In this document: piece by piece, positions 1,851 to 64,000 of the stretch
Layout of the letters: every line of letters starts with the position of its first letter
Numbering within the stretch: position 1 is the stretch's first letter
Origin: an uncultured Oscillospiraceae bacterium
GTDB lineage: Bacteria; Bacillota; Clostridia; Christensenellales; Aristaeellaceae
Assembly (NCBI GenBank): GCA_964549135.1
Contig: CAZJUJ010000004.1
Location: forward strand, 13,453 to 77,452
Length of the DNA stretch: 64,000 nucleotides
Direction of reading: 5' to 3'
Notes under the pieces: model-generated
The model's database searches: none
What the model was told of the DNA's origin: nothing
Seen by the model: the letters and a program-made list of their open reading frames with translations, nothing else
Translations under genes and position numbers: made by a program

Positions 1851-2023
1851 CCTCATCCCCACACCCAAACCGCGTTCCTTTCCGGTATCTAAACCATCAT
1901 TCAACTCCCGTATCCAAACCGGCATTTCATCACCTATCCAAACTACCGTTCCATCCTTTATCAAGTCTGGCGTTCCATCCCCTATCCAAACCGACACCTC
2001 ATTTCCGCGTCCAATCTCCCGCG
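1851..2023. repeat. Degenerate tandem array of about seven ~25-nt units (core TATCCAAACC...CGTTCCATCC)
   Basis: Reading the sequence gives units CGGTATCTAAACCATCATTCAACTC / CCGTATCCAAACCGGCATTTCATCAC / CTATCCAAACTACCGTTCCATCCTT / TATCAAGTCTGGCGTTCCATCCC / CTATCCAAACCGACACCTCATTTCCG. The array lies between the stop at 1842 and the terminator at 2035. Confidence 0.6.
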
Positions 2024-2075: not shown

Positions 2076-2181
2076 GCTGTTCAAACCGATATCGTCCGCC
2101 CATCATTTCCCTGGGGCGAATGCAATCATTGCGGGGGCTGATGAGGGAAAAAGCGCCCTCCAGCAATATTTTCCCGTCCCG

Positions 2182-3135
2182 CTATTTCTTCATCACGATC
2201 TGATACGCCGTGCAGCCGATGCCGATGCAGCAGGCGGCCATCACGCTATAGCAGGCCCAGACGGGGATCACCGCCGATTTATCAATCGCAAATTCCATCC
2301 AGATGCTGATGCCGATGCAGAGCAGGAAAATCCCGAAGCAGGCGGCCATGCGTGCGGGCGGCATCCGCCTGTCCCGGGGCCGCCGAAGCCATGGGATCAG
2401 CGCCGCCAGCATAAGCCCTGCCAGCACCAGCACCGCCGTCAGCTGGCTCACCCGCACAAACAGCCACCGGAGAAAATTATCCCGCCGCAGGCTTTCCAAT
2501 AAAATCTGGCAGGTGCAATAGAGGATCAGGAATACCCTGGCCTCCTCCCCTGCCGCTCCGCGCTTTTTCAGCATAAGCACCAGGAAAATGGCCAGCGCCG
2601 CCGCGCCCTCCAGCAGGAAAATGGCCCAATACCATTCCCCGTATTCATTGCATACCGCAAAGGGAAAACGCCAGAAGGCCTCGTTTTCCACATACATGCC
2701 AATGCCCTCGCCGCTGAAAAACTCCGCAAAGCGGCAAAGGGCAATGGTCAGCGCCCCGGGGGCCGCCAGGGCATCCAGGATCGCCGCGCATTTCTGCCCG
2801 GTGATTTTCGCAGTCATCAGGGCGGCCAGCGCCGCGCCCCCCGCCGCGCCCCAGAGGGCATAGCCCCCGTCAAAGAGGCGCAGCATATTTCCCGCGCCGA
2901 TTTCCAGATAAAAGCTGATCCGGGCCAGGCAATAGAAAGCCCGTGCGCCGAGCAGGCCCAGGGGCAGCGAAAGCATGGCGAAAATCCCGGCGGTATCCGC
3001 CTTGAGCCCCCGCCTTTTCTGCTCCCGCCCAAGCAGCCATAGGCCCAGCGCCAGCGAAAGCACAACGCACAGGGCATAGGCCGTCACCGGCCTGCCAAAG
3101 ATCGTAAAGAGCGTATAGCGAGCCATCGTTTCCAT
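2182..3135 (-). CDS. lgt: Prolipoprotein diacylglyceryl transferase
   Basis: 317-aa polytopic membrane protein. The N-terminal pattern (GRPVTAYALCVVLSLALGLWL..GARAFYCL, FDGGYALWGAAGGAALA) matches the Lgt family layout. Confidence 0.75.
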   Translation of the reverse strand: METMARYTLFTIFGRPVTAYALCVVLSLALGLWLLGREQKRRGLKADTAGIFAMLSLPLGLLGARAFYCLARISFYLEIGAGNMLRLFDGGYALWGAAGGAALAALMTAKITGQKCAAILDALAAPGALTIALCRFAEFFSGEGIGMYVENEAFWRFPFAVCNEYGEWYWAIFLLEGAAALAIFLVLMLKKRGAAGEEARVFLILYCTCQILLESLRRDNFLRWLFVRVSQLTAVLVLAGLMLAALIPWLRRPRDRRMPPARMAACFGIFLLCIGISIWMEFAIDKSAVIPVWACYSVMAACCIGIGCTAYQIVMKK

Positions 3136-4053: not shown

Positions 4054-5976
4054 TCAGGGCAGCATCTGCCCGTTTTCAAATTGGATGATTCCCGTCTCCA
4101 GGAAGGATGCCGGGGGATTTTCGCAGTTTTTGTATTCCTTGCTAAAGGTCAGCTTCTCCAGAATCTCTCTCCGCTCCGCCGCATCCGTCACCTCATAGGG
4201 GCGGTAATCGGGGCTGCCCTGGGTCTTGCAGGGGATAACCTGCATCTGCCTGAGCTGCACCTGACCGTCAGTTTTCTCATAGGTCAGCTGGAAAATGCCG
4301 GTAGACGGATCGACAGCCGACATGGTGCCGAAGGTAAAATTGCCGGTGGAATAGAGGATGGGCTTGCCCATATAGAACTGAATGGGCTGAATCACATGGG
4401 GATGATGCCCCCAGATCACATCCGCCCCGGCCTTAATGACCTCCCTGGCGTAAGCCATCTGCCAGGATTCGGGGGTCATATGGGTTTCTCTCCCCCAGTG
4501 CAGGCTTACCACCACCAGATCGCAGCCCTCATTTTCCTTGAGTTTCTTAATCCGGCTGGCAATCTTTTTCTGATCCGAATCCTGGGGATAGCTGAAGCCG
4601 ATAAAGCCGATGCGGATATCGCCCACATCCTGAATTCCCAGATCGTCATAGCCGTTTTCCCGCCCGGGATAGACCGAGCCAAACCGGGCGATGCCCGCCG
4701 CATCCAGGCATTCGATGCTGTCCTGATAGCCGGTCTGCATAAAATCCATGCAGTGGTTGTTGACGGTATTGACCATCTCCACGCTGCCCTCCAGCAGGAT
4801 CTGCACATGATCGGGATCTGCCGTCAGGTTATACATCTTGTCCGTATGCTTGGTGCGGTTGGTGAATACCACCTCCAGATTGGCGATGGTCAGATCATCC
4901 GCCGCCAGATAATCCTTAACCAGGGAAAAGGGCCAGGCATAGCCCTTGGCATCGATGGTGGTATGATAGGAGGAATCGGCCTTCTTATACTGCTCGGAAT
5001 CGCCGATGCTGCAATCCCCCACAAAGGAAAGGGTAATCCCGCTCTTCTCCTTTTCCGGCGCTTCCGTGGGCCGGGGAATATCCGTAGGCACGGGGGTTTC
5101 CGCCGCGGGGATTATTTCCGTTTGAGGAATAGTCACAATTGCGGCCTCTGCCGCCGGGGCAGCCGTCTGCGGCAGCGCAGATGGGGCGTTCGTCGCCGGC
5201 ACAGCGGCGGGGGCGGGCGTTTCCGCTTCCCCGGTATAAACCAGCGTAAAGGGATCATCCTTGGCGCCGCTGCCGCCCGAAATGGCCACCCGGCTCAGAT
5301 CCAGCCGCACGGAAAGCCGCAAGCCCACGTTTACCCGGGTATACGCACCCCAGCTGAGATGACCGTTATAGCCGATCAACTGCAGCTTGTAATCCTCCGG
5401 ATCCTTGATGGTAGCCGCCCAGTAGGGGCTTTTGTTGATGCTGCGATCCACATAGAGATTGCGCTGCTTGATGCAGTAGGGCGTGCCCACCGCCTGGCGG
5501 GATTTCTGCTCATTCCACATATTGGCGGAAAAGCCGTAATCCGTGGTCAGAAACTGCTCGCTGGTAAGAATGAATACCCGCCCGCCGTTTTCCGGGATCA
5601 GCGCGCCGGTAATATCTGCATCGCCAAAGAGACGGGAAACCATTTCCGTATCCAGCCAGGGGCAAAGATCGCTTTCCTCATACTGGCTGATGCGGCGATA
5701 GGTGCGGTTTTCGATCACCTTCTGATCGGTTTCAAAGATGGCCTGCTGGGTATCGATAATGTATTCGGTCAGCATCAGGGCAGTGCCATCCTCAATGCCC
5801 AGCACCCGCCAAAGCACCGGCGCCTCGGCCCCATCCTTTTCGTAGGGATATTCCCCCAGCAGCACATACTGGTATCCCTTTCCCTTTTCGTAGCCGCGAA
5901 GCGCCGTCTCCGCCGGGGCGGAAAGGGGCAGAAGCAGCATCAGCAGCGCCAAGAGCGCCAAGAGCATTTTTTTCAC
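4054..5976 (-). CDS. Secreted two-domain protein: N-terminal DUF6273-like domain, Pro/Ala/Thr linker, C-terminal CapA-family domain
   Basis: Best start is GTG at 5976, 6 nt after AAGGAGG, giving the signal peptide VKKMLLALLALLMLLLPLSAPAE. The C-terminal part carries SFVGDCSIGD, NNHCMDF, SLHWGRE and GHHPH. Confidence 0.75.
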   Translation of the reverse strand: MKKMLLALLALLMLLLPLSAPAETALRGYEKGKGYQYVLLGEYPYEKDGAEAPVLWRVLGIEDGTALMLTEYIIDTQQAIFETDQKVIENRTYRRISQYEESDLCPWLDTEMVSRLFGDADITGALIPENGGRVFILTSEQFLTTDYGFSANMWNEQKSRQAVGTPYCIKQRNLYVDRSINKSPYWAATIKDPEDYKLQLIGYNGHLSWGAYTRVNVGLRLSVRLDLSRVAISGGSGAKDDPFTLVYTGEAETPAPAAVPATNAPSALPQTAAPAAEAAIVTIPQTEIIPAAETPVPTDIPRPTEAPEKEKSGITLSFVGDCSIGDSEQYKKADSSYHTTIDAKGYAWPFSLVKDYLAADDLTIANLEVVFTNRTKHTDKMYNLTADPDHVQILLEGSVEMVNTVNNHCMDFMQTGYQDSIECLDAAGIARFGSVYPGRENGYDDLGIQDVGDIRIGFIGFSYPQDSDQKKIASRIKKLKENEGCDLVVVSLHWGRETHMTPESWQMAYAREVIKAGADVIWGHHPHVIQPIQFYMGKPILYSTGNFTFGTMSAVDPSTGIFQLTYEKTDGQVQLRQMQVIPCKTQGSPDYRPYEVTDAAERREILEKLTFSKEYKNCENPPASFLETGIIQFENGQMLP

Positions 5977-6983: not shown

Positions 6984-7904
6984 TTAATCCATGATGCCAA
7001 TCATCTGCTGCCTGAGGGCGGCCCGCTCGGGCAGATTGATCCAGAACCGGGTCAGCTTCCGGCTGTTGGTCACATAATCCCGGAAATTCACCCGGTTGCG
7101 CACAAAGAGAAGCACGTTGGTATCCCCGTTCAGATCATTGGCAATGCTGATATCCTGACCAAAGCGGAAGCCCAGATCATCCATGGTTTCGGGCTCCACA
7201 TTTTTCACGCTGGCCAGATCGGAAAAGAACGTGAAATATTCGGATACGGTTTCGGTGTTCCCGCCCTCATCGGCGCAGAAATTCTCATAGGTCACCCGCA
7301 CCGTATCGCCGTTTACATCCACATATACTTCGCCGATAACATATACGCTGCCCGCCACATATTCAAATACCTGGCGGCCCGATCTGCTCAGATCGATGGG
7401 CGTAAACATATACCATTTGTCCGTCAGCCCCGGCTTGATTTCCCGGAACTGGGGGCCGAAGCTACAGGCGGTATTGTTGGGATACCAGGTGGCCCTTTCC
7501 ACGCAGACGGTGCTTCCGTCCTCATCCAAACGATAATAGAGATTGTAGGTATAGGTTTTCCCATCCATTTCAAAGGCGGCCTTCATGCGCTTGACGGGCT
7601 TGGAATAGCTGAGCCCCGTCTTGTCATAGGGAACAGACCAGGTGATTTCCTGCCCGGCGGCAATGCCATAGCGGGTTTCGGTATAGGCCGCGCTTCCGGT
7701 GCGGGTATCGGTCAGGGTAAATACGATTTTCCCGCTCCTGGTGCTTGCCACCTTGGTTTTCAGCGCGTTTTCGCTGCCGCCCTGGCTCAATTCCCGGGTG
7801 CCAAGGAAAGAGATCGTCAGGGGCTTTTCCTCTGCAACGCAGACCATGGGCAGCATGAGCGCTGCCAGCAGCAGCATAATCAGTAAGGAACGCAAGGCTT
7901 TCAT
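6984..7904 (-). CDS. Secreted hypothetical protein
   Basis: Start chosen at MKALRSLLIMLLLAALMLPMVCVAEE (AAGGAG RBS upstream). No recognisable family. Confidence 0.6.
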   Translation of the reverse strand: MKALRSLLIMLLLAALMLPMVCVAEEKPLTISFLGTRELSQGGSENALKTKVASTRSGKIVFTLTDTRTGSAAYTETRYGIAAGQEITWSVPYDKTGLSYSKPVKRMKAAFEMDGKTYTYNLYYRLDEDGSTVCVERATWYPNNTACSFGPQFREIKPGLTDKWYMFTPIDLSRSGRQVFEYVAGSVYVIGEVYVDVNGDTVRVTYENFCADEGGNTETVSEYFTFFSDLASVKNVEPETMDDLGFRFGQDISIANDLNGDTNVLLFVRNRVNFRDYVTNSRKLTRFWINLPERAALRQQMIGIMD

Positions 7905-11950: not shown

Positions 11951-11959
11951 GCGGGGATG

Positions 11960-12470
11960 GGATACGGGATTGGAAAATCATTGCGGGAGGATGCTTTTGC
12001 GTCAAAAGCACCCTCCCGCACCCTCCCGAAAACCGCCTCTGGATGGAACAAGGATTACTTTCGCATCGTTGAATGCCAGTGAAGCAAAAGGAAGCAAGTA
12101 GTAAGGAATAAAACAGCAATGCTCTCGCCAAACAGGAGGACATCGCTGCTGCAGAACACCTGCTTGAATGCCAGTGAAACAATAGAAAATCTGCAATAAG
12201 AAGCAAAACAGCAATGCTCCATCAAACGCGGAAGCATTGCTGCTGTTTTTCTATTCGTTATTTGTTTTTGCTGATCTGGCATTCAATTTAGCAAGAACCC
12301 TCCATGAAACATCCAGAGCCGGTTTTCGGAAGGGGCGCGGGGGAACCACTTTTGACTCAAAAGTGGTTCCCCGCAAAATAATCCCCCGTTTCCTGGTTTT
12401 CGGGAGGGTGCTGGAGGGGACTTTTGACTCAAAAGTCTCCTCCCGCAAAAATCCCGTCCTTTCCCCGTCC
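11960..12470. repeat. Modular nested-palindromic intergenic repeat, copy A (modules G-H-B-C-T-C-T-C'-B'-H-B'-H-G')
   Basis: H hairpins at 11983-12019, 12337-12374 and 12413-12446. B CCCTCCCGAAAACCGCCTCTGGATG at 12021-12046, with its inverse at 12310-12335. C TTGAATGCCAGTGAAGCAAAAG at 12069-12090 and 12164-12180, with its inverse at 12265-12286. T hairpins at 12110-12151 and 12205-12250. Confidence 0.85.
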
Positions 12471-13742
12471 TCACGTCTCTCCCGTCGGCTGCGGAAGCAC
12501 CACGCTGATGCGGGTGCCGAATTCCTCCCGGGAGAAGACATCGAAATAGCCGCCGTGCTTTTCGACGATCCATTTGGCGATAGAGAGGCCCAGGCCGGTG
12601 CCGCCGCCCGCCCGGGTACGCGCAGGATCGGAGCGGAAGAAGCGGTCAAAGATCCGGTTCAGGTCTTCCTCCCTGATGCCGATGCCGTTATCCTGCACCT
12701 CAAAGCAGGGCACGCCCTCCTTCAACCGTGCGCGGAGGGTAATCCGATCCTCTTTTTCGGTATATTTCACCGCATTATCGGTAAGGATCCGTGCGGTCTG
12801 CTTAAGCATGGCGGCGTCGCCCTGCACCATAACCGGCACATCGGCCATGATCCGCCATTGCCGCTCGCCCTGAATCATGCAGGATTCCTCATAGACCTCC
12901 CGCATCATCTGGGCGATATCCACATTTTCGATGGTCAATTGATTGCGTCCGTTATCCCCCCGGGCCAGGAAGAGCAATTGCTCCACCAGCTTTTTCATAT
13001 GCGCTGTTTCGCTCTGGATGGCCTCTATCCCCTCCGCCAGAATCTTGGGGTCATCCTTCCCCCATCGGGCCAGCATATCGGCATAGCCCTGAATGACGGC
13101 AATGGGCGTGCGCAATTCATGGGAGGCATCGGATGTAAAGCGGCTCTGCTCCCGATAGGCCTCCTGCATACGCCGGAGCAGATCATTAATGGCCGCCTCC
13201 AGGCTCTGCAATTCCTTGCTCCCGGTTTTTAGCTGCACGTTTTCATTGGTGGGCGATACGGTAGCCAGGGCGCTTTCCAGATGATGCAGCTTTTCCATAT
13301 CAAACTGCGCGCGGCTCAATTCCTGCGCGGTGCGCGCCATTTTTTCCAGGGGACTGAGCAGCCGCCTGGCCTTTTTCCTGCCGGTAATGTACTGGAGCAG
13401 CAGGAGAACCGTTTCAAAGCCGCAGAGAATCGTAAAAAAGCGGCTGACGATATGAAAATAGCCTTCCCCATCCACGGTAATCCTTTCGCCCGCCGCCGTT
13501 TCAAAGGAATAGCGGATGGTTTCCGCCCGCGTTCTCAGGCTCTGCCCGCTGTCCCATTCCAGATGCCGGTAGACGCTCTCGCCGCGCCAGCCGCCGGCGG
13601 CCTCCTCCGCCGCATAGCAGAAGCCGAAAACCGATAGCCCCAATAGCAGCGCATCCACCAATAAAAGCGTAAGAAGCATCCGGAAAAACCAGACGCGGTT
13701 CATCCGCTTGGCGATGGATTTCATTCTGCGGTCATCCTTCAT
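12471..13742 (-). CDS. Sensor histidine kinase (two TM helices, HAMP-like, HisKA, HATPase)
   Basis: H-box SDASHELRTPI. N and G boxes (DNAVKYT, DNGIGI, GGTGLGLSI). Confidence 0.9.
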   Translation of the reverse strand: MKDDRRMKSIAKRMNRVWFFRMLLTLLLVDALLLGLSVFGFCYAAEEAAGGWRGESVYRHLEWDSGQSLRTRAETIRYSFETAAGERITVDGEGYFHIVSRFFTILCGFETVLLLLQYITGRKKARRLLSPLEKMARTAQELSRAQFDMEKLHHLESALATVSPTNENVQLKTGSKELQSLEAAINDLLRRMQEAYREQSRFTSDASHELRTPIAVIQGYADMLARWGKDDPKILAEGIEAIQSETAHMKKLVEQLLFLARGDNGRNQLTIENVDIAQMMREVYEESCMIQGERQWRIMADVPVMVQGDAAMLKQTARILTDNAVKYTEKEDRITLRARLKEGVPCFEVQDNGIGIREEDLNRIFDRFFRSDPARTRAGGGTGLGLSIAKWIVEKHGGYFDVFSREEFGTRISVVLPQPTGET

Positions 13743-15798: not shown

Positions 15799-16553
15799 TC
15801 CTTATTGTAGGGTAAAATGCAGCAGCTGATGCCGGAATCGATGGTCAGTTCAGCGCCGGTGACCGTTTTGGCTTCATCCGAGCAGAGATAATACACCCCG
15901 GCGGCGATCTCCTCCCCAAAGGATTCGCGCCCCGCCGGATACTGGGCCCGCCGTTTTTGCGTGGTGGCCTCATCCTGCATATCCCAGCGATCGGTATGGA
16001 TCGCCCCGGCCACCAGATTATTGATCCGAATGCCCAGATGGCCCACTTCCAGCGCCAGGGCATGATTCATGGCCGCAATCGCGCCCTTGGAGGCGGCATA
16101 CAGCACCCGCCCCGGCAGGGTGGCATTGGCATGCACCGAGCCAATCAGGCAGATGGCGCTGCCGGGAGGCATGAGCTTAACGGCCTCCTGACAGCCGAAA
16201 AAGGAGCCCCGGGCATTGGCGTTCATCACCGCATCCCAATCCGCCTGAGTGGCATTAAAGATGCTCAGATCCACGCCCAGATGCGCCGCATTGGAAATAT
16301 ACGCATTCAGATGCCCAAATTCCTGCTTCACCACGGAAAAAGCTGCGCGGATGCTTTCCACGCTGGCGGGATCCATGCCCAGCCCCAGTACCCGCACGCT
16401 TGGATACTCCCTGCCCACCTGCAGGGCGGCCTCCCGGGCCTCGTCCGCGCTGCGGCTGGTAATCACGGCGTCATAGCCCTCCCGGGCAAACCGCCTGATG
16501 ATGGCAAGGCCGGTATTCCGGGCAGCGCCGGTCACAAGAACGACACGATTCAT
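15783..16553 (-). CDS. SDR-family oxidoreductase
   Basis: TGAARNTGLAI Rossmann motif and YAASKGA catalytic YxxxK. Confidence 0.85.
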   Translation of the reverse strand: MNRVVLVTGAARNTGLAIIRRFAREGYDAVITSRSADEAREAALQVGREYPSVRVLGLGMDPASVESIRAAFSVVKQEFGHLNAYISNAAHLGVDLSIFNATQADWDAVMNANARGSFFGCQEAVKLMPPGSAICLIGSVHANATLPGRVLYAASKGAIAAMNHALALEVGHLGIRINNLVAGAIHTDRWDMQDEATTQKRRAQYPAGRESFGEEIAAGVYYLCSDEAKTVTGAELTIDSGISCCILPYNKEWNQK

Positions 16554-16598
16554 GGTATCACTCTTTTCTTTCTTCTTTCTGTTCTGTTTTTTATGGAT

Positions 16599-17792
16599 TC
16601 AGCGCTTTTCGTTGGCGTATTCCAGGCCCTTAAAATAATAGATCGTATCATCCTTGGGCCGAATATCCGTAAGCGTCCCTGTATAATGCCGCAGATTCCG
16701 GGGTTTATAGGGATAGCGGGCCATTTCCTCCTCATGCACCTCAATGCCCAGGCCGGGCTTATTGCCGATGAGGATATAGCCATCCTCAAATACCACCTCT
16801 TCATCGGTAATGCTCCTGCGGAAGGAGCCATCGGTCAGCATGATTTCGTGAATCAGGAAATTGGGGGTAGCGGCAGCCAATTGCAGAATGGCGGCGTTGG
16901 AAATCGGGCCGGAGGGATTATGGAAGCTGACGGGAATATGATTGGCCTCGCACATGGCGGCAATTTTCTTGCTTTCGGAGATGCCGCCGGTGTGGAAAAT
17001 ATCCGGCTGGGCAATATCCACGCAGCCCTTGCGCAGAACATCCCAGAATTGATACTTGCCGTAGAATCTCTCCCCCGCCGCCACGGGAATCATGGAATGA
17101 TCCCGCACCCAGGCAAGGGAATCCAGATTATCCGGCACGGTGGGCTCTTCAATCAGCATGGGCTTAAAGGGGGCCAGCTGGCGGCTCATCTCCACCGCCG
17201 TATAGGGATTGAAGCGGCCATGGCATTCAATCAGCAGATCCACAAAGGGGCCCACCGCATCCCGTACCGCCCCCACAATGCGCACGGCCTTATCCATTTC
17301 CTCCAGGGAAAGGGTCATATGCGCCTTGCCGAAGGGATCCCATTTCAGCGCCTTGATGCCCATGGCTACGGTCTTTTTCGCGGCGGCGGCAAAATCCTCC
17401 GGCTCCCGGGCCCCGGTAAACCAGGCGTTGGCGTACATTTTTACTTTGTCCCGCATCCTGCCGCCCAGGAGCGCCGCCACCGGCAGATTCAGCCGCTTGC
17501 CCAGAATATCCCAGCAGGCAATTTCAATGCCGGAAAGGGCGCTCATCATCACAGGGCCGCCCTTCCAATAGGAATCGCGATAGACCTCAAACCACATTTT
17601 TTCAATTTCGCCCGGATCGCGGCCCACCACCATCCGCTTCATATCCTCCACGCAGCCCGCCAGCGCATTTTCCCTGGTGCCCAGCGAGGCCTCGCCCCAG
17701 CCGTAAAGCCCCTCGTCAGTCTCCACCTTGATAAATGTCCAGTTGGTGCGGAAGGCATCCATCGTATAGGCCCTTACATCCGTAATTTTCAT
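16599..17792 (-). CDS. Enolase-superfamily (mandelate racemase/muconate lactonizing) sugar-acid dehydratase, galactonate/mannonate dehydratase-like
   Basis: MKITDVRAY..FIKVETDEGLYGWGEASL N-terminal capping domain. Barrel domain with IEEP and FHNP motifs. Confidence 0.8.
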   Translation of the reverse strand: MKITDVRAYTMDAFRTNWTFIKVETDEGLYGWGEASLGTRENALAGCVEDMKRMVVGRDPGEIEKMWFEVYRDSYWKGGPVMMSALSGIEIACWDILGKRLNLPVAALLGGRMRDKVKMYANAWFTGAREPEDFAAAAKKTVAMGIKALKWDPFGKAHMTLSLEEMDKAVRIVGAVRDAVGPFVDLLIECHGRFNPYTAVEMSRQLAPFKPMLIEEPTVPDNLDSLAWVRDHSMIPVAAGERFYGKYQFWDVLRKGCVDIAQPDIFHTGGISESKKIAAMCEANHIPVSFHNPSGPISNAAILQLAAATPNFLIHEIMLTDGSFRRSITDEEVVFEDGYILIGNKPGLGIEVHEEEMARYPYKPRNLRHYTGTLTDIRPKDDTIYYFKGLEYANEKR

Positions 17793-17924
17793 GCTCTTTC
17801 CTCCCCCTTGTCTTTCTCAGCCTTCATTATAAACAGCCCCCTCCTGCGCCGCAAGGGCGAAAAAACGCGAAACTTTTTCCTGTATTTTGGCCCCCGAAAA
17901 ATCGGCAGACTTCAGACACCAGAT

Positions 17925-18375
17925 TCCCCATCCCCGCTTGAAAACCAAGGACGAAGGAACGGGATTTTTGCGGGAGGAGGCTTTTGTGTCAAAAGCCCCC
18001 TCCCGCACCCTCCCGAAAACCGGGGAACAAGATACGGGGAATAATTTGCGGGGGAACCACTTTTGAGTCAAAAGTGGGTTCCCCCGCACCCCCTCCGAAA
18101 ACCGGCTCTGGATGATTCATAGAGGAATATAACAAATTGAATGCCAGATCGACAAAAAGAAATAGCAACCCACAAAAACAGCAGCAATGCCTTCGCGCTT
18201 GATGAGGACATTGCTGCTTTATTCTTTACACCTATTATTCTTTTGCTTCACTGGCATTCAATCTGGTTTTTTCTTTTTGTTTCATCCAGAGCCGGTTTTC
18301 GGGAGGGTGCGGGAGGGTGCTTTTGACGCAAAAGCATCCTCCCGCAATATTTTCCCCGTCTCCCGTTTCCCATTC
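17925..18375. repeat. Modular nested-palindromic intergenic repeat, copy B (most complete: G-H-B-G-H-B-C-T-C'-B'-H-G')
   Basis: H at 17970-18006, 18048-18087 and 18309-18345. B at 18089-18114, with its inverse at 18283-18307. C at 18137-18159, with its inverse at 18241-18261. Central T hairpin at 18174-18220. Confidence 0.85.
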
Positions 18376-18379
18376 CCCG

Positions 18380-20641: not shown

Positions 20642-22729
20642 TTATCCGCCCACCCGAATAAATACATACACAATCGCCGCCACGATGCCAAGGGCGCAGA
20701 GCAGCAGACCAAAGGAAATCGCATTGGTCACATACGCGCCATAGCGCATATCCGTGGGCGCCTTGGCATGCAGCCGGCGCCGGGGCGAAAGGGTATACAG
20801 CGCCTTATGCAGCCCCTCCACGATGGCGCTTGCCAGATGGGTAAAGATGCTGTGCTTGCCCTCCCTGTGCAATTCCTGCCGGTTTATCAGGAAAAGCTCC
20901 CGAATAAACAGCATCACATGATCCATCGTTTCATCCATCAGCCGGAAAAAGCCCGTGATCAGGCCCGCCAGATACCGGGTAATCGCCCGGGATTCGGGCA
21001 GCGCATCCAGAAAACCGGCGATTTTGCAGCCCACAAAGGGCAAAAAGCGGCAGAACACCGGGCGATAGACGATCTCCTCCAGATCCAGCCGCCGGGGCCA
21101 GAGATTGATATAGCCCTTCTCCCTGCGGTACAGCACGGTGCGCACAAAAAGGAAATACACCGACGTGCCGATGGCAAGGCTGATCAGCCCGCCGGAAAGA
21201 TTGGCCCAGGAGAGGAAATGGATGCTGCCCTGGGCCTGCTGATGCAGAAAAGGTGCGCTTATATTGGTCAGGCCAAGCAGCACCTGATTGGGGAAAAGGC
21301 CGATAGCCAATAGCGGCAGCACCGATAGCATCAGCGCCAGGGCAGAGCGCCCCTCCAGCCCCTCATGCCGCATCCCGTCATATTGCTTCTGGATTTCCGC
21401 ATCGGGATTCTTCTGCCAGAAAAGACAGAGATAGATTTTCAGCATGTAGGCGGCGGTCAGCCCGGCGGCAAAGAGGAAAACCCATTCCGCCGCATGATAG
21501 GAAAACACGCCGGGGTATTCGTGGGTCAATTCCACCAGCGCCTCATGGATCATGGTCTTGCTGGCATAGCCGTTCAGAAACGGCACGCCGCTTAAGCCCA
21601 TACCGCCCAGCAGAAACACCGCATGCAGCAGGGGCTTTTTCCGCCCATAGCCCATCAGGCGCGTAAGATCCAGGCTGTGCGCGCCCATATACACCGCCCC
21701 TGCGCCCAGGAACAGCGCCAGCTTCAGCAGGGAATGATTGATCATATGCCCCACCGTGCCCGCGGCAGCCATGGCCCCGTTTTCCCCCAGCAGCACCACG
21801 CAGGCAAAGCCCACCGTGATATACCCGATCTGGGAAAGGGAGGAGCAGGCCAGGATGCGCTTGAGATTGATTGAAAAGACCGCCAGCACCGCCCCCAGCA
21901 GCATCGTTATCAGCCCCAGCGCCAGCATCACCTGGCCAAAGACGCGGCTTTGCCCCATCAGATTCAGGCCGATGGCGATCAGGCCAAAGAGACCGGTCTT
22001 GGTCAGCATGCCGGAAAGCAGCGCGCTGGCCGGGGCCGGGGCCACGGGATGGGCCTTGGGCAGCCAGATATGCAGGGGCGCAAGGCCGGCCTTGGCGCAG
22101 AAGCCCACCAGCATCAGGCAGGCGGGAAGAAGCATATCCTCCCGGCCCAGGGCGCTTCTGAGCCCTGCGTAGGAAAGATCGCCCAGCCGGTGATAGCAGA
22201 GCATCATGCCCATGAGCGTCACCATGCCGCAGGCAATGGATACCCCCAGATAGGTGGCCGCCGCCCGCCGGGCCTCCCGACTTTCCTCATGGGCCACCCA
22301 GGGATAGGAGGCAATGGACATGATTTCGAAAAAGATAAAGGCGGTATACAGATCATCGGAAAGGAATACGCCCACAACCCCGGTCAGGGTGAGCAGCGTA
22401 AAAAAGACATAGCGCCCGCGATTTTCCCCATGGGAAAAATACTGCCGGGAAAACAGCGCGGCAATGAACCACATAAACGCCGCCAGCAGCGCATACAGCG
22501 CCCGGAAGCCATCCGCCCGGAAGGAAAGCCCCATGCCGCCAAGGCCCGCCCATTGGGCCGTCATTTCCCGTCCGGCCGCCGCCTGGGTAAAAATCACCAG
22601 CGCAAGGAGAAACTCGGCCAGCGTAAACAGCCGCAGCAGAAGATCACGGCTTTCGCCCTTTTTCCGCCCGGCCAGCGGGGCGATGACCGCCCCTGCCAAA
22701 GGCAGGCATAATACGATTGCAAACATCAT
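20642..22729 (-). CDS. NuoL/MrpA-like antiporter subunit with ~230-aa C-terminal extension
   Basis: Proton_antipo_M-type core (HIWLPKAHPVAPAPASALLSGMLTKTG). ATG 22729 overlaps the upstream stop (ATGA). Long C-terminal helical tail ending in a TM helix. Confidence 0.8.
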   Translation of the reverse strand: MMFAIVLCLPLAGAVIAPLAGRKKGESRDLLLRLFTLAEFLLALVIFTQAAAGREMTAQWAGLGGMGLSFRADGFRALYALLAAFMWFIAALFSRQYFSHGENRGRYVFFTLLTLTGVVGVFLSDDLYTAFIFFEIMSIASYPWVAHEESREARRAAATYLGVSIACGMVTLMGMMLCYHRLGDLSYAGLRSALGREDMLLPACLMLVGFCAKAGLAPLHIWLPKAHPVAPAPASALLSGMLTKTGLFGLIAIGLNLMGQSRVFGQVMLALGLITMLLGAVLAVFSINLKRILACSSLSQIGYITVGFACVVLLGENGAMAAAGTVGHMINHSLLKLALFLGAGAVYMGAHSLDLTRLMGYGRKKPLLHAVFLLGGMGLSGVPFLNGYASKTMIHEALVELTHEYPGVFSYHAAEWVFLFAAGLTAAYMLKIYLCLFWQKNPDAEIQKQYDGMRHEGLEGRSALALMLSVLPLLAIGLFPNQVLLGLTNISAPFLHQQAQGSIHFLSWANLSGGLISLAIGTSVYFLFVRTVLYRREKGYINLWPRRLDLEEIVYRPVFCRFLPFVGCKIAGFLDALPESRAITRYLAGLITGFFRLMDETMDHVMLFIRELFLINRQELHREGKHSIFTHLASAIVEGLHKALYTLSPRRRLHAKAPTDMRYGAYVTNAISFGLLLCALGIVAAIVYVFIRVGG

Positions 22730-24180
22730 TTTCCCAATCCTCCCGCAATCGCCTGAATATACTCCATCAGATTCCCGGCAAAGATCCCGGCAAGCACCAT
22801 CATCACGCACAGAATCACCAGCGCGCTCTTCATGCAGGCCCCGGGATCACAGGGCGCTTTCTCCCCCGGCGCAAGGCTCGGCTTCATAAAGAAGGCAGGA
22901 AAGGCCACCGTGAATACATAGATCGCCGTCAGCACGGAGGAAACCAGCAACGCCGCAGCCCCCGCAATGGGCAGCGCGCCCCCCAGATCAAAGGCGGCGG
23001 TGATCAGATAATTCTTGCTGATAAAGCCAGGCAGCGGCGGCACGCCCACCAGGGCCGCGCCCGCAAGCAGGAAAGCGCCGAAGGTCAGGGGCATTTTGCG
23101 GCCCAGGCCGTGCATTTCCCTTACCCGGGTGCGCCCGCTCTGAACCAGCACCGCCCCGGCGCAGAAGAAGAGAATGATCTTCATCAGCCCGTGGAATACC
23201 ATGTGCGCAAGGCCCGCCGCCATGCCCTCCCTGCTCAGCAGGGAAAGGCCAAAGAGCATATAGCTCAGATTGCTTACCGTAGACCAGGCCAGCCGCTTTT
23301 TCACATGCTGCTCCCGCACCGCCATGACCGAGCCCGCCAGCACGGTCATGATGCTCAGCAGCAGCATCGTCTGCTGGGCCCAGCTTCCCGCCAACAGCCC
23401 GGGATCAATCACATAATACAGGATGCGCAGCACCGCAAATACCCCGGCATTGACCACCGCCACCGCATGCAGTAGTGCCGTTACCGGCGTTGGCGCGACG
23501 GAGGCTGCAGGCAGCCACCGGGAAAGCGGCAGCACCGCCGCCTTGGCCCCAAAGCCGATAAAGCCCAGCAGGGCAATGAAATACAGCCAGTCCTTCCCCG
23601 TTTCTGCAATCTCCACGCCGCCCAGGGCAAATTGCCCCGCGCCCAGGGCATCAAAGCCCATCATGGCCACAAAGCCCAGGGCCGCGCCGCCAAAGAGGGA
23701 AAGCATATACCGCCGCACGGCGCGGATGGAGGGCTTATCCTTTTCATGCCAGACCAGCGGCAGCGTCAGCAGCGTCAGCAGCTCATAGAAAATATAGAAG
23801 GTGAATAGATTTTCCGCAGCCGCCAGCAGCACCGCCGCGCCATAGGTCATGGTATACCAGGCAAAGAAATTGCCCTCCCGCCGCTCATGGCGCATATATT
23901 CCATGGCATACAGCACCGCAAGGGGCCAAAGCACCGCCGCCAGGCCCAGATAGATCCGCCCGGCATCATCCAGATGCAGCGCGCAGACCATGCTGTCCGT
24001 AAGCCGCAATAGCTCGATTCTCCCCTCCCAGCCTGAAAGCACCAGATACAGCGCCAGAAGAGAGGTGGCAAGCGTGGCAGAAAAGACATACCCCATCCGG
24101 ATTTTTCTGTTTTTCAGCCGCAGAAAGGGCAGTGCCCCGCCCAGCGCCAGCGGCAGAAACGCACAAATGATCAGCAGCAT
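22726..24180 (-). CDS. MrpD/NuoN-like antiporter subunit (paralog 3)
   Basis: WLPAASVAPTPVTALLHAVAVVNAG core motif; about 14 TM helices. Confidence 0.85.
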   Translation of the reverse strand: MLLIICAFLPLALGGALPFLRLKNRKIRMGYVFSATLATSLLALYLVLSGWEGRIELLRLTDSMVCALHLDDAGRIYLGLAAVLWPLAVLYAMEYMRHERREGNFFAWYTMTYGAAVLLAAAENLFTFYIFYELLTLLTLPLVWHEKDKPSIRAVRRYMLSLFGGAALGFVAMMGFDALGAGQFALGGVEIAETGKDWLYFIALLGFIGFGAKAAVLPLSRWLPAASVAPTPVTALLHAVAVVNAGVFAVLRILYYVIDPGLLAGSWAQQTMLLLSIMTVLAGSVMAVREQHVKKRLAWSTVSNLSYMLFGLSLLSREGMAAGLAHMVFHGLMKIILFFCAGAVLVQSGRTRVREMHGLGRKMPLTFGAFLLAGAALVGVPPLPGFISKNYLITAAFDLGGALPIAGAAALLVSSVLTAIYVFTVAFPAFFMKPSLAPGEKAPCDPGACMKSALVILCVMMVLAGIFAGNLMEYIQAIAGGLGK

Positions 24181-24191
24181 CGGCCATCACC

Positions 24192-25658
24192 TCACATCAG
24201 GCCCGCCGCCAGGCCGCGAAGGAAATCAATCAGCCCGCCGGAAAACAGCCCCAGCCCCACAATCAGCACCGAATAGACCACCATGGGGGCCGTCATTTTC
24301 CAGGATACCTCGCAGCGGGGCAGCCCCTCTTTTCCGCCAAAGCAGCCCCTGATCACCACGGTGAGCAGATACGCCGCCGTCAGGATGGCGCTGATGAGCA
24401 GCGCCGCCGGGCCAATCCAGCTGCCCGCCAGGCCGGTATCCAGTGCGCCGGCGGCCAGATTCCATTTGCTCACAAAGCCGCCGGTGGGCGGAATGCCGAT
24501 CAGGCCCAGAGAGGCCACGGCAAAGCAGGCAAAGGTCACGGGCATCTGCTTGCCCAGGCCCTCATAATCCCCCACCTCGGTTTTGCCCGTCTGATGGATC
24601 ATGCTGCCCGCGCCCATGAACAGGGTGTTTTTCATCAGCGAATGGAAAATGATATGCAGCACCGCGCCCACAAAGCCGGCCTCCGTCATGGTAAAGAGGC
24701 CAAAGAGAACATACGAAACCTGGGAAACGGAGGAATAGGCCAGCCGCTTCTTGATCTTTTTTTCCTTGAACGCCATCAGCGAGCCCATCAGCACCGTGAT
24801 CAAGGAAAGGCCCAGCAGCAGCGTCTGCACCCAGGTGCCCCGCAGCCTTTCCGCGCCCGCCACAAAGTAAATCACCCGGATCATGCCCAGCACGCCCATC
24901 TTGGTAATCACGCCCGAAAGCACGGCGCTGGCCGGGGCCGGGGCCACGGGATGGGCCGTGGGCAGCCAGCCGTGGAGGGGAAACATGCCCGCCTTGACGG
25001 AAAAGCCGATGAGCATGACAAGGAAAATCGCCATGGCCAGGCCTTCCTTCCCCGCCAGCATTTCCGCCGTCAGGGGCCCGGCGGCAAAATCTCCCCCCGC
25101 CCCCAGAGAGCTGACAAAGAAAATGCCAATCAGGGCGGCAGAGGCGCCCAGCACGGAATAGATCAGATATTTGATGGCCGCCGCCACGGCAGGCCGATCC
25201 ATATCATGCAATACCAGCGGCACGGTCAGCAGCGTCATGGCCTCATAGAACATATAGAAGGTGACAAGATTGCCGCTGACGGCAAGGGCGTTCAGCACGC
25301 CCTGAGTCAGGGTATAGAATAGATAGAAGCGCGCCTTATGCGCATCCCCGCCCAGGTATTCCGCCGCATACAGCCCCACCCCGGGCCAGATCACGCTGAT
25401 CAGCGCAAGATACACCCTGGATACCTGATCCAGCCGCAATTGCAGGGAAAGGGTATCCGTCCAGCGAATCATCATTTCCCCCGGATTGCCAAAGAACGCA
25501 AGGCAGAGGGAGAGAAGCGCCGTAACCGACAGCGCCGCCATCGTGGCCCTGTCAAGCGTCTTTCCCTTCAGCCGAAGAAAATAAATGCCCAGCCCCGCCG
25601 CCACAGGCAAAAGCAGCGAAAGCAGCAGAAGAATATTTGCCAGATTTGTCATATTCAT
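24192..25658 (-). CDS. MrpD/NuoM-like antiporter subunit (paralog 2)
   Basis: HGWLPTAHPVAPAPASAVLSGVITKMG core motif. Confidence 0.85.
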   Translation of the reverse strand: MNMTNLANILLLLSLLLPVAAGLGIYFLRLKGKTLDRATMAALSVTALLSLCLAFFGNPGEMMIRWTDTLSLQLRLDQVSRVYLALISVIWPGVGLYAAEYLGGDAHKARFYLFYTLTQGVLNALAVSGNLVTFYMFYEAMTLLTVPLVLHDMDRPAVAAAIKYLIYSVLGASAALIGIFFVSSLGAGGDFAAGPLTAEMLAGKEGLAMAIFLVMLIGFSVKAGMFPLHGWLPTAHPVAPAPASAVLSGVITKMGVLGMIRVIYFVAGAERLRGTWVQTLLLGLSLITVLMGSLMAFKEKKIKKRLAYSSVSQVSYVLFGLFTMTEAGFVGAVLHIIFHSLMKNTLFMGAGSMIHQTGKTEVGDYEGLGKQMPVTFACFAVASLGLIGIPPTGGFVSKWNLAAGALDTGLAGSWIGPAALLISAILTAAYLLTVVIRGCFGGKEGLPRCEVSWKMTAPMVVYSVLIVGLGLFSGGLIDFLRGLAAGLM

Positions 25659-25688
25659 CGTCCCCTTTGCATCATGGGCGTGCGCCCG

Positions 25689-36459: not shown

Positions 36460-36471
36460 GGAGGATAAAGT

Positions 36472-37260: not shown

Positions 37261-37264
37261 CCAA

Positions 37265-37670
37265 TGATTACGGTAGGAGATTTTGCGGGAGGAGACTTTT
37301 GAGTCAAAAGCACCTTCCCGCGCCCTCCCGAAAACCGGCTCTGGATGTTTCCTGGAGGGCGATAACCAGATTGAATGCCAGATCAGCAAAAAAAGCGAAG
37401 GTTTTTACAGAATACCATTCTTGATTGCTATCAAACGGCTCCCCGCGCCCTCCCGAAAACCGGATCTGGATGCTTCTTGGAGGAATAAACCCAACTTTGG
37501 ATGCCAGATCGGCAAAAACAGGCAGGAAGAACGAAAACAGCAATGCTCTCGCCAAACACGAAAGCATTGCTGTTGCTTTTTGCGATTATTATTCCCTTTT
37601 GCTGATCCGGCATTCCGTTTTCTCAGCAGATATTCATCGCATTCCTTCTTCCGTGCGCAGGTCGGCACGG
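37265..37670. repeat. Modular intergenic repeat, copy C (G-H-B-C-halfH-B-C-T-C'; right arm truncated)
   Basis: H at 37285-37321. B at 37322-37347 and 37447-37472. C at 37371-37395 and 37496-37519. T at 37534-37581. C' at 37596-37616. Confidence 0.8.
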
Positions 37671-37679
37671 CGTTTTTCC

Positions 37680-39776: not shown

Positions 39777-39792
39777 GAGGATCGCTCCTTTC

Positions 39793-39935: not shown

Positions 39936-39956
39936 TAGAAAAAGTGTCGTTTTTGT

Positions 39957-39984
39957 ATTATACCACGCCCAGGCAGACTGTCAA
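39957..39984 (-). promoter_or_regulatory. Near-consensus sigma-A promoter with extended -10
   Basis: The minus strand reads TTGACA (39984-39979), 16 nt spacer, TGG-TATAAT (39962-39957). It sits directly upstream of the 28-nt repeat array. Confidence 0.7.
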
Positions 39985-47611: not shown

Positions 47612-47639
47612 AGGCAGCGCTTTTTCTGCATTATACAAT

Positions 47640-47975
47640 TCTCTTCGGGAAGAAGATTTCTGGACACCCAAAGAATCCCGCACACGCAAGCGGGAGAACA
47701 TCGCAGGCGCGGGCTTTTGAGCCAGGCACATCTTCCCGCCCCTCCTGTAAACTGGCGCTTGCACGGCAACCCATGATCAGCTAAAGGCGCTGCGCCTCTT
47801 CCCGCGCCCGAAGGCTGGTTCCCGAGGTTTTGCAGAGAACATAACCCAACTGAATGCCAGCGCTGCAAAAAGAATAAACGGCAAGGAAAAACAACAATGC
47901 TCCCCAATCTGACGGGGAGCATTGCGTTATTTCTATTCTTTTCCTCTTTTGCTGCATCGGCGTTCAAACCAGACA
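47640..47975. repeat. Degenerate copy E of the modular intergenic repeat (decayed H/B, recognisable C-T-C')
   Basis: C-like AACTGAATGCCAGCGCTGCAAAAAG at 47848-47872. T hairpin AACAATGCTCCCC..GGGGAGCATTGCGTT at 47887-47934. C'-like CTTTTGCTGCATCGGCGTTCAAACC at 47946-47970. Confidence 0.55.
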
Positions 47976-48085
47976 GAGCAAAGGGCGAAGCAGTCCGGAT
48001 ATCCTTCCTTGAGAGCATGCAGCGGAGGCCCCTCTTTGTCTGCAAAGAATGGTTTCCCTGCAAAATCTGCCCTCATCTCACCGGC

Positions 48086-63919: not shown

Positions 63920-63924
63920 GCCTT

Positions 63925-64000
63925 GGGGAGAGAACGGGGAGAGATCTTGCGGGAGGATGCTTTTGTGTCAAAAGCACCCTCCCGCGCCCTCCCGAAAACC
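63925..64000. repeat. Modular intergenic repeat, copy D (G-H-B...; runs off the window edge)
   Basis: H hairpin at 63949-63985 differs from the copy A hairpin by one loop nucleotide. B module starts at 63987. Confidence 0.75.

Follow-up and report, generated by a model that had tools for sequence, protein, structure and literature searches.

We have identified, in the 64,000-nucleotide stretch of clostridial DNA analyzed here (the window), a repeat family that is real and previously undescribed, though the kind of element is already known and is not new biology. In our judgment its members are probably REP/BIME- or MITE-like: intergenic, hairpin-forming, non-autonomous and lineage-restricted. 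An earlier note on this DNA had described a set of modules (G, H, B, C and T) recurring at 11960-12470, 17925-18375, 37265-37670, 47640-47975 (decayed) and 63925-64000 (cut by the window edge), and the modules are indeed present at all five sites, at counts far above chance. In the window, hairpin H (GCGGGAGGnnnCTTTTGnnnCAAAAGnnnCCTCCCGC) has six matches at no more than one mismatch against 0.00 expected, with two more variant hairpins at 12337-12374 and 18048-18087. For the B core CCCTCCCGAAAACC, 10 matches were found where 0.94 would be expected, and for the C module four where 0 would be. A covariance model of H plus B finds eight strong units in the window, scoring 59-83 bits. The stop codons said to flank the elements (11950, 12471, 18380, 37260 and 63919) were placed correctly, as were the identities of the flanking genes (sigma-70 family factor, histidine kinase, NTP transferase, RnfB and CAP). 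An exact look-up of the sigma-factor ORF returned no record, probably because its start codon was called differently.

The elements are 420-520 nt long, have arms of 54-80 nt that in the window copies are 89-95% complementary, and hold no conserved ORF. The units lie outside ORFs in every copy. A spurious 695-aa ORF in the window reads into copy 2. Folding of copy 2 gives a single hairpin of -229 kcal/mol (z = -15.9). The earlier description of the element as one large palindrome holds for copies 1 and 2, which are full, but copy 3 has no right B'-H-G' arm, copy 4 has decayed, and the window end truncates copy 5. Two oriented half-elements fit better than a single palindrome, as in other species solitary G-H-B units are found after intra-operon stop codons. 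The G-H-B unit can also stand in tandem (12321-12388 with 12395-12470, and 17960-18021 with 18035-18103). Besides inverted doublets there are units in tandem, and B2, C and T serve as linker modules; the inverted arms are spaced 140-360 nt apart. The modules of each copy, together with a sixth, decayed remnant, are collected in Table 1.

Table 1. Modules of the repeat copies in the 64-kb window
Feature	Position	Strand	Remarks
Copy 1, left lead (G): G-runs GCGGGGATGGGATACGGGA, then AT-rich spacer	11951..11982	+	1 nt past sigma-factor stop (11950)
Copy 1, left H hairpin	11983..12019	+	17-bp stem, 3-nt loop, conserved A.C mismatch at stem position 9
Copy 1, left B tail ACCCTCCCGAAAACC	12020..12034	+	with H 3' arm, forms tandem GCACCCTCCC x2
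Copy 1, second stem SL2: B2 (GCCTCTGGATG), variable loop, C (TTGAATGCCAGTGAAGCAAAAGG)	12035..12092	+	
Copy 1, internal duplication: degenerate T-like half, then second C (12164-12187)	12110..12187	+	
Copy 1, centre T: AAAACAGCAATGCTC..GAAGCATTGCTGCTGTTTTT	12205..12250	.	A-tract, hairpin of -21.5 kcal/mol, T-tract; bidirectional terminator-like
Copy 1, right half: C' 12263-12286, B2', B tail of inner unit	12263..12334	-	
Copy 1, inner right unit: variant hairpin GCGGGGGAACCAC..GTGGTTCCCCGC (12337-12374), lead ACGGGGGATTATTTT	12337..12388	-	
Copy 1, outer right unit: B 12395-12409, H 12410-12446, lead/G 12447-12470	12395..12470	-	stops 1 nt short of kinase stop codon (12471-12473)
Copy 2, left arm, two tandem units	17925..18103	+	H 17970-18006, B 18007-18021; variant H 18048-18087, B 18088-18103; lead side toward promoter region of gene 16599-17792(-)
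Copy 2, left SL2: B2 18104-18114, C 18137-18160	18104..18160	+	
Copy 2, centre T hairpin (CAGCAGCAATGCC..GGACATTGCTGCT)	18174..18224	.	A and T tracts on flanks
Copy 2, right half: C' 18238-18261, B2' 18283-18293, B 18294-18308, H 18309-18345, G 18346-18379	18238..18379	-	reaches NTP-transferase stop codon (18380)
Copy 3, left half: lead 37261-37284, H 37285-37321, B 37322-37336, B2 37337-37347, C 37371-37394	37261..37394	+	immediately 3' of rnfB stop codon (37260)
Copy 3, partial second unit: H end and B (37425-37463), then B2, C (37497-37520)	37425..37520	+	
Copy 3, T hairpin (37534-37582), C' (37595-37616)	37534..37616	.	T -22.3 kcal/mol; right B'-H-G' arm absent
Copy 4, decayed: H-like 47692-47754, C 47850-47873, T 47886-47930, C' 47945-47968	47612..48085	.	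fills gap between DUF4298 gene and ftsZ; H-like part 12.8 bits only; T -23.3 kcal/mol
Copy 5, cut at window end: lead/G 63920-63948, H 63949-63985, B 63986-64000	63920..64000	+	immediately 3' of CAP-domain gene stop codon (63919)
Sixth, decayed remnant: degenerate H' and G' (..CCCTCCAGCAATATTTTCCCGTCCCG)	~2100..2181	-	against stop of gene 2182-3135(-)

The conserved core of the family is about 70 nt long and consists of an ACGGGRA/AT-rich lead, the 17-bp GC-clamped hairpin H, and the single-stranded, C-rich tail B (RCCCTCCCGAAAACC), which repeats the 3' arm of H such that one CCCTCCC copy is always left unpaired. H and B are nearly invariant between species, while the neighbouring modules vary. 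Compensatory substitutions preserve the H hairpin in the different subfamilies: pairing holds in 87.6% of cells, whereas sliding the partner columns gives no more than 55.5%, and double changes occupy 34 cells against 13.7 in shuffles, with none of 500 shuffles as high. The pair 12-31, for instance, is seen as GC, UA, CG, UG and AU, and the variant stems GGGGGAACCAC/GTGGTTCCCC, GAGGGAGGGAC/GTCCCTCCCTC and CTGGGGGAAACCGCTCTTTGG/CCAAAGAGCGGTTTCCCCCAG are still fully complementary. The stem also carries a conserved mismatch, A.C on the sense strand. We considered and rejected H as a canonical terminator, because its flanks show no consistent U-tract in either orientation, and a small ORF starting from an ATG within H, because the AGGC variants have no ATG. 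Four G-runs occur in only one or two leads, so a G-quadruplex is not a general feature of the lead.

In each half of the element in this genome, one or two units connect to a weak second stem, SL2 (B2:C), whose halves are the 3' part of B (GGCTCTGGATG) and the C module. We grade SL2 as weakly supported, because RNAalifold predicts no consensus structure for it and its best stem, at a mean of 4.8 bp, is barely above the 4.0 bp of shuffled sequences. The two inverted halves have in common the central module T, an A-tract, hairpin and T-tract that is terminator-like both ways, with hairpins of -14.5 to -23.3 kcal/mol, the A-tract on the 5' side and the T-tract on the 3' side. A terminator consensus scan marks 18197-18171, in the T of copy 2. 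Since the T sequence (CAGCAATGC...) is near-identical at unrelated loci, T belongs to the repeat and is not locus-specific. T has the features of a Rho-independent terminator and is a putative terminator in both directions, and the earlier suggestion that the element supplies terminators fits well with a centre that, by sequence, reads as a bidirectional intrinsic terminator.

To describe where the units lie, we considered the identities and orientations of nearby ORFs. Of the 59 units, 37 have an ORF of 100 aa or more on the same strand that ends about 0-20 nt upstream, while only 10 have the end of an opposite-strand ORF on their 3' side. Over all units measured, the hairpin starts 2-44 nt past the stop codon (median 16). 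It had been claimed that the elements start close to stop codons, and in the window this is true of the G-runs, which begin 1-12 nt past the stop, but the hairpin itself lies 24-34 nt past it. Convergent gaps are occupied much more often (44%) than tandem or divergent gaps (11-14%), and occupied gaps are larger (median about 300 nt) than empty ones (48-115 nt). The lead side faces outward, against stop codons or against promoters and ribosome-binding sites, with about 20 units directed toward promoters, ribosome-binding sites or divergent gaps and not toward stop codons. Within operons, solitary units sit immediately 5' of the next gene's ribosome-binding site. The elements take up essentially all of the dispensable space from the stop codon to the next functional signal. 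Replication orientation can be rejected as the cause of the bias in gene sense, because both orientations flank single convergent gaps.

The family was found at no fewer than 34 loci, in at least eight species-level MAGs of uncultured gut and rumen Clostridia. Carriers include SIG375 (SVHD01), SIG368 (SVGW01), the Hadza assembly CAKTWP01, CAVIWF01, CAVKHY01, RGIG2992 and RGIG6889. The sequences examined yielded no match to the family in phages, plasmids (by blastn) or viral contigs, and a literature search with the exact sequence yielded none either. Rfam gave no match at the gathering score anywhere in the window; at an E-value threshold, all of the Rfam matches were far under the gathering score of their family, and almost all were to miRNA precursor models. 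These results bear out the proposal that the family is lineage-specific and undescribed. A metagenome scan returned two short contigs only. The short-read Logan contigs of this species that encode the exact RnfB, NTP-transferase or kinase proteins all end 41-52 nt past the stop codon, inside H. With the eight strong units in 64 kb, these breaks show the family to be multicopy in the genome.

Comparison with relatives speaks to how the elements come and go. A sister genome with 86% nucleotide identity (L054) has plain terminators and no units at ftsZ and rnfB, the sites of copies 4 and 3, and its homology to our genome ends at the stop codons of those two genes. The rnfB orthologues compared, at 75-86% identity, all lack a unit 3' of rnfB, and most have ordinary terminators there; the rnfB relatives L039-L044, L050 and L051 are without units. 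The insertion polymorphism that the earlier note had proposed looking for is thus found, with orthologous sites empty in the sister genome and in six rnfB relatives. Judging from these comparisons, the elements are gained or lost at places where close relatives keep a short spacer and an ordinary terminator. In one orthologous gene pair (L019 and L027, 89% amino acid identity) a unit is present 3' of the stop codon in both species. Copies 3 and 4 lie exactly at both synteny breakpoints with L054 and enclose a 10.8-kb segment, part of which is low in GC and contains a phage terminase gene. The position of these copies hints at a role in genome rearrangement. Separately, two of the rnfB relatives (L043 and L044) have assemblies that diverge at a palindromic element unrelated to this family, and in L043 a spurious 190-aa "gene" has been called within the palindromic element 3' of rnfB, which is not a member of this family.

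Among known systems, the REP, BIME and REPIN elements of the Proteobacteria, with their RAYT (TnpA_REP) transposase, are similar in many respects, and the modular build with REP/BIME-like logic that had been suggested is supported. Both are high-copy, short, extragenic, GC-rich hairpins that occur as single, tandem and inverted-pair units in mosaic with other conserved motifs; both favour transcribed 3' and intercistronic sites, are enriched between convergent genes, have a conserved imperfection in the stem, and include co-existing subfamilies. The hallmark GT[AG]G of REP is, however, absent here at any fixed position, and the 5' flank is instead an AT-rich run after ACGG(G)RA. At 17 bp, H is a longer hairpin than that of REP, and the tail behind it copies its 3' arm. 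The inverted arms are much farther apart than in a REPIN (140-360 nt), enclosing a terminator-like hairpin of their own. The host also differs, being a clostridium, with no RAYT found in the sequence searched. Class 2 Y1 (RAYT) genes have mostly been reported outside the Clostridia, in other phyla (PMC6006769).

The family here also resembles the MITE-type repeats in its size, inverted repeats, modular build and insertion polymorphism between relatives. Such repeats, which include Correia/NEMIS in Neisseria, ERIC/IRU in the enterobacteria, RUP and BOX in the pneumococcus and bcr1 in the Bacillus cereus group, measure 100-500 bp, are bounded at their ends by long, imperfect inverted repeats, and have a modular structure (as in BOX A-B-C); they are co-transcribed with their neighbours, show insertion polymorphism, and in some cases have promoter or terminator activity. 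In the Rfam search and in blastn of plasmids and phages, the family showed no sequence similarity to Correia/NEMIS, ERIC/IRU, RUP, BOX or bcr1; neither a TA nor any other target-site duplication was seen, and no cognate IS is known. Unlike MITEs, the units are oriented and can also stand alone as a 70-nt piece. T resembles the bidirectional Rho-independent terminators and occupies the site of the relatives' ordinary terminator, whereas H differs from such terminators in having no consistent U-tract on either flank. A last comparison is with the PATEs derived from IS200/IS605 and with integron attC sites, which are likewise strand-specific imperfect hairpins. PATE and attC hairpins are recognised as single-stranded DNA, and attC sites lie directly 3' of stop codons in a fixed orientation. 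No TnpA, TnpB or IntI gene is nearby here, however; the R''/R' core sites of attC (RYYYAAC / GTTRRRY) are absent from the unit, and the units follow convergent housekeeping genes in both orientations instead of forming one-directional cassette arrays.

We suspect that copies spread by a single-stranded, hairpin-dependent copy or recombination process, with the responsible enzyme, of the HUH/Y1 type as for REP and IS200 or of another type, presumably encoded elsewhere in the genome. Once inserted, the element would form the 3' UTR of the upstream gene's transcript, T would stop transcripts coming from both sides, and H may form a stable RNA hairpin acting as a barrier to 3' exonucleases or as insulation. 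The REP hairpins of enterobacteria have a documented role of this kind, as exonuclease barriers and in insulation. A Pfam search of the ORFs bounded by inward-facing units (at L034, L032 and L028) found ordinary genes only, and no transposase or RAYT adjoins the units. Searching E. coli RayT with phmmer against 2072 ORFs, a weak test covering only about 450 kb, gave no match, and the plasmids, phages, viral contigs and loci examined held no autonomous IS with matching ends. Neither a target-site duplication nor the exact ends of the element could be defined, the ends being blurred by reiterated GGGRA runs, and the empty-site junction cannot be aligned because homology with the sister genome ends at the stop codons. 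The H-B unit could be the cis-element of a persistent repeat-enzyme partnership in Firmicutes, analogous to REPIN-RAYT but with some other enzyme, or a 3'-UTR punctuation module domesticated by the host, a reading that we entertain as a minority possibility.

We considered the possibility that the unit is a host-selected RNA module of the 3' UTR, with H and its exposed CCCUCCC tail bound by a protein or sRNA, or with the hairpin affecting terminating ribosomes, so that the genes carrying it are co-regulated. In E. coli, REPs within 15 nt of stop codons were reportedly proposed by Liang, Rudd and Deutscher in 2015 to affect terminating ribosomes. The sense orientation near a stop codon of 37 of 59 units and the median distance of 16 nt would fit such a role, as would the constancy of H-B amid changing modules, the CCCTCCC that is always left unpaired, and the unit shared past the stop by the L019 and L027 orthologues. 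The strictly outward orientation of the units, taken with the near-identity of H-B between species, could likewise reflect a host function, and this counts against the repeat reading. The genes carrying units are unrelated in function, however (sigma factor, kinase, RnfB, FtsZ, CAP and NTP transferase), and the same genes have no unit in sister genomes. The roughly 20 units facing promoters, ribosome-binding sites or divergent gaps are not accommodated; read on the sense strand, the conserved mismatch is A.C, a pairing disfavoured in RNA; and in the window the distances of 24-34 nt put the hairpin outside the ribosome footprint. On balance we find this explanation doubtful.

The units might also be bound as double-stranded DNA by a chromosome-organising or recombination protein, much as BIMEs are by gyrase or IHF, or else be recombination scars or hot spots bordering variable regions. 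The location of copies 3 and 4 at the L054 breakpoints, around the 10.8-kb segment, is consistent with this, as is the parting of the L043 and L044 assemblies at an unrelated palindromic element, although assembly chimeras at repeats could account for the latter. Most copies, in any case, lie between ordinary housekeeping genes with no signs of an island. The compensatory changes in H, moreover, preserve intrastrand pairing and not fixed half-site sequences, which indicates that a hairpin is maintained and not recognition by a protein dimer, and we regard the proposal as improbable.

An outward-firing promoter cassette, with transcription leading away from the element and running antisense into the upstream gene or into a downstream gene, was suggested by the antisense loop, which reads TTGACN and is followed by the 16-17 nt 3' arm and then by the AT-rich lead as a possible -10. 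The asymmetry of the loop (sense NGT, antisense TTGAC) is kept in most of about 50 hairpins, and a promoter scan of copies 1 and 2 found three sites against 0.4 expected and four against 0.6; among the candidates, TTGACA-17-AAAAAT at 17992->17964 points toward gene 16599-17792(-). The -10 candidates, however, are weak and not position-specific, the leads reading AAATCC, AAAAAT, AATATT and so on, and a -35 box hidden in a 17-bp stem would be unusual. Units at gene starts usually have an independent canonical promoter beyond them (L034, L028, L021 and the window at about 17835); otherwise only 13-23 nt separate the unit from the ATG, and the transcription start would sit within the ribosome-binding site. 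We consider this very improbable. Finally, chance resemblance or an assembly artefact, for which only the general risk of mis-assembly at repeats can be argued, is refuted by a chance expectation of about 0 and by the presence of the unit in assemblies made independently from samples of rumen, goat, sheep and human (Hadza) origin and at the ends of Logan contigs.

The family has practical consequences for the genomics of these abundant uncultured gut and rumen Clostridia. The repeats break short-read assemblies at nearly every occupied gene end and yield spurious ORF calls, and recognising them improves both the assembly and the annotation of MAGs. To our knowledge, REP-like systems have been well studied only in the Proteobacteria, and for a REP/BIME-like family that occurs in Clostridia, lacks GTAG and has shown no RAYT in the limited sequence searched, one has to ask which enzyme maintains it. 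With its own putative bidirectional terminator, and abutting stop codons and promoters as it does, the element is a natural insulator cassette and could inform the biology of 3' UTRs in the Firmicutes. If the punctuation-module reading were true, the element would combine a hairpin, an exposed CCCUCCC tail resembling an anti-Shine-Dalgarno sequence, and a portable bidirectional terminator, and would set transcript ends and stability for hundreds of genes across a clade of gut and rumen Clostridia.

The same modules, namely a lead (G), a hairpin (H), a C-rich tail (B), a second stem (B2:C) and a central terminator-like hairpin (T), recur at all five sites named in the earlier note, as direct reading of the five regions bears out. 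A repeat finder connects these regions via direct and inverted matches, and within the window the H pattern GCGGGAGGnnnCTTTTGnnnCAAAAGnnnCCTCCCGC has 6 matches at ≤1 mismatch (0.00 expected), CCCTCCCGAAAACC has 10 (0.94 expected) and the C module has 4 (0 expected). A covariance model trained on 38 hairpin-plus-tail (H+B) sequences detects 8 units in the window at 59-83 bits, and a sensitive self-BLAST adds a decayed remnant. The ORF ends given by the earlier note proved correct; Pfam neighbours are a sigma-70-family factor, a histidine kinase, an NTP transferase, RnfB, FtsZ, a DUF4298 protein and a CAP-domain protein. Three long mechanical ORFs extend into the GC-rich units or span them, and automated annotation is likely to report false genes at elements of this sort. 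Elsewhere in the window, a long ORF that lies upstream of the rnf genes contains a tandem duplication, which probably codes for duplicate domains in the protein, and three stretches whose shared segments are 62-84% identical (repeat families D2, D14 and D19) suggest three paralogous genes in a row.

Coordinates of the repeat copies and of other features in the window and related loci
Feature	Locus	Position	Detail
Copy 1	window	11960-12470	tandem units 12321-12388 and 12395-12470; tail example 12010-12034
Copy 2	window	17925-18375	tandem units 17960-18021 and 18035-18103
Copy 3	window	37265-37670	rnfB stop codon at 37260
Copy 4	window	47640-47975	ftsZ stop codon at 48086
Copy 5	window	63925-64000	
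Inverted arms	window	11972-12051 / 18277-18356	80 nt, 94% complementary
Inverted arms	window	17968-18023 / 18292-18347	56 nt, 95% complementary
Decayed remnant	window	~2100-2181	in gap 1843-2181; also adjoins a stop codon
C-rich tandem repeat	window	1906-1991	same gap; 24 nt, 3.6 copies
Terminator-like inverted repeat	window	near 2036-2078	same gap
Long mechanical ORFs	window	15957-18044 (+), 12237-13232 (+), 36073-37389 (-)	
Similar stretches	window	21819-26525	
Tandem duplication	window	32274-32892	330 nt, 1.9 copies, 75% identity
Variable segment	window	37261-48085	10.8 kb
Low-GC part	window	40000-47000	GC 45-54% vs ~60%
Terminase large subunit	window	40787-42529 (-)	
28-nt tandem repeat	window	39808-39934	~4.3 copies, consensus CCGGAATGATGGGGTAACCGTCCGCGGG
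Promoter beside unit	L002	~7470-7650	TTGACG-17-TATAAT
Different palindromic element	L043	4581-5340	arms 4635-4738 and 5215-5319
Different palindromic element	L044	1683-2323	

Comparison of all copies shows the repeated core to be an oriented unit in which a lead of ACGGGRA and then 4-9 A/T precedes the 37-nt hairpin H, and the tail RCCCTCCCGAAAACC comes after it. The tail duplicates the 3' arm of the hairpin, giving two tandem copies of the C-rich GCACCCTCCC, one of which is therefore left unpaired in every unit. This duplication is present in all H+B units, and the tail co-varies with the stem among subfamilies (CTCTC tails with GAGAG stems, CCCCTTCC tails with GGGGGAA stems), suggesting that the 5' arm could pair with either 3'-arm copy. 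On the 3' side of the tail, a short stem can arise by pairing of GGCTCTGGATG (B2) with TTGAATGCCAG (C), which enclose a variable loop of 25-30 nt; beyond this stem lie an A-rich stretch and then the T hairpin. Two halves inverted relative to each other make up the large palindrome that the earlier note had described, but it is complete in copies 1 and 2 only: copy 3 is without its right-hand unit, copy 4 has decayed, and the end of the window truncates copy 5. Copy 2 folds into a single hairpin (-229 kcal/mol, z = -15.9). The T hairpins (-14.5 to -23.3 kcal/mol), having an A-tract ahead and a T-tract behind, resemble in sequence intrinsic terminators that act in both directions.

Hairpin H is under constraint. 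Across 38 different H+B sequences, taken from the window and from related loci, standard pairs fill 87.6% of the cells of the H stem, as against at most 55.5% with the 3' partners slid, and double-sided changes occur in 34 cells versus 13.7 in shuffles, a value reached by 0 of 500 shuffles. Pair 12-31 is found as GC, UA, CG, UG and AU; at pair 11-32 a conserved imperfection, an A.C mismatch, is present in 30 of the 38; and divergent subfamilies have quite different stems with perfect complementarity kept. The second stem stands on less firm ground: although its partner keeps a constant offset of +36 to +42 and its pairs vary by genome (CTGG/CCAG, CTGGG/CCCAG, CGGG/CCCG, GGGGAAA/TTTCCCC), the best-stem length is only 4.8 bp versus 4.0 bp in shuffles, and RNAalifold predicted no consensus structure for it.

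The family is a repeat restricted to one lineage. When one genome per species was scanned for the H-B junction pattern, at least 34 loci were found, the carriers being at least 8 MAGs that represent uncultured Clostridia sampled in cattle, sheep, goats and humans (Hadza). Among the matches listed, carriers have 54-62% GC (the window has 57%), H+B is nearly identical in every carrier, and the window forms of B2 and C occur only in the window and SIG375-like loci; in other carrier genomes the second stem and centre take forms of their own. Searches of viral contigs, of phage and plasmid records, of Rfam and, by sequence, of the literature gave no match, and a metagenome scan yielded only two short contigs. 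Short-read contigs with the exact window RnfB, NTP transferase or kinase all end 41-52 nt past the stop codon, inside H, which is the behaviour of a high-copy repeat. Units are also borne by L010 (CAVDRM010000002.1, 59% GC), from a MAG labelled 'Anaerovibrio sp.'; this points to mislabelling or mis-binning of the contig and less to a true occurrence in Negativicutes.

Orthologous sites are empty in relatives. The sister genome contig L054 (FtsZ 97% identical, 86% nucleotide identity across 9.3 kb) stops aligning at the ftsZ and rnfB stop codons of the window, where it has short spacers, ordinary terminators and no unit in place of copies 4 and 3, and the fetched rnfB orthologues (75-86% identity) have no units after rnfB. 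A relative with 92% FtsZ identity has a variant unit, within which contigs break. The family is thus patchy among close relatives, as expected for an element that spreads and decays. Copies 3 and 4 bound a segment missing from the L054 contig, the low-GC part of which encodes a phage terminase large subunit and a DUF7211 protein; the segment is probably what is left of a prophage or island within a variable region. At the edge of its low-GC part, the 5' end of a glycoside-hydrolase ORF holds a 28-nt tandem repeat whose period is not a multiple of three. In a relative whose RnfB is 79% identical (loci L043 and L044, from two assemblies), a different nested palindromic element, 640-740 nt long and rich in GC hairpins, lies after rnfB; the assemblies show 100% identity as far as mid-element and diverge beyond, and the 190-aa "gene" annotated within this element is probably a false call. 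Gap-filling palindromes of unrelated sequence thus also exist in this clade.

We considered the placement of 59 units (nhmmer E < 1e-3) relative to ORFs. A same-strand ORF of at least 100 aa ends ~0-20 nt upstream in 37 of the 59, and an opposite-strand ORF end lies beside the 3' side in only 10, most of which have a sense gene too; from stop codon to hairpin start is 2-44 nt (median 16). Within convergent gaps, each unit adjoins the gene to which it is sense. The lead side of ~20 units points toward the promoter or ribosome-binding site of an oppositely oriented gene, some merely 13-23 nt from the ATG, and solitary units lie within operons at related loci L019, L006 and L013. Occupancy of convergent gaps is ~3-4 times that of tandem or divergent gaps, and occupied gaps are ~300 nt long, whereas empty ones measure 48-115 nt. 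Read most simply, carrier genomes have minimal intergenic spacers, so that an inserted element necessarily touches flanking signals and, being palindromic, offers each convergent gene a sense unit as a matter of course. This fails to account for the bias of solitary units towards the sense orientation, which speaks for constraint at the RNA level. At the related locus L002, a canonical promoter on the antisense side of a unit is followed by what by eye resembles a tRNA gene; units may thus also lie upstream of RNA genes.

The family is probably a REP/BIME- or MITE-like non-autonomous hairpin repeat. By analogy with REP, drawing on the RAYT/REPIN literature (PMC6006769 among it), it would be copied by an enzyme encoded elsewhere and tolerated in 3' UTRs or spacers, where T would terminate transcription arriving from both sides and H would supply a stable RNA hairpin. 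Weighing against full membership, the GT[AG]G motif of REP is absent from the window family, a search over a limited amount of DNA turned up neither a RAYT nor a transposase, and no target duplication could be made out. A 3'-UTR regulon element seems unlikely beside the REP/BIME/MITE reading, and a protein-binding site in double-stranded DNA, or a hot spot of recombination, is more doubtful still. An outward promoter, to which the TTGACN of the hairpin loop on the antisense strand would lend itself, is the least probable of these three.

The REP/BIME- or MITE-like kind of element is well known, while the sequence family itself appears to be undescribed. Its significance could be raised by the H-B core that is invariant across species, the duplicated C-rich tail and the built-in terminator, and also by the host clade, in which, to our knowledge, REP-RAYT systems have not been reported.
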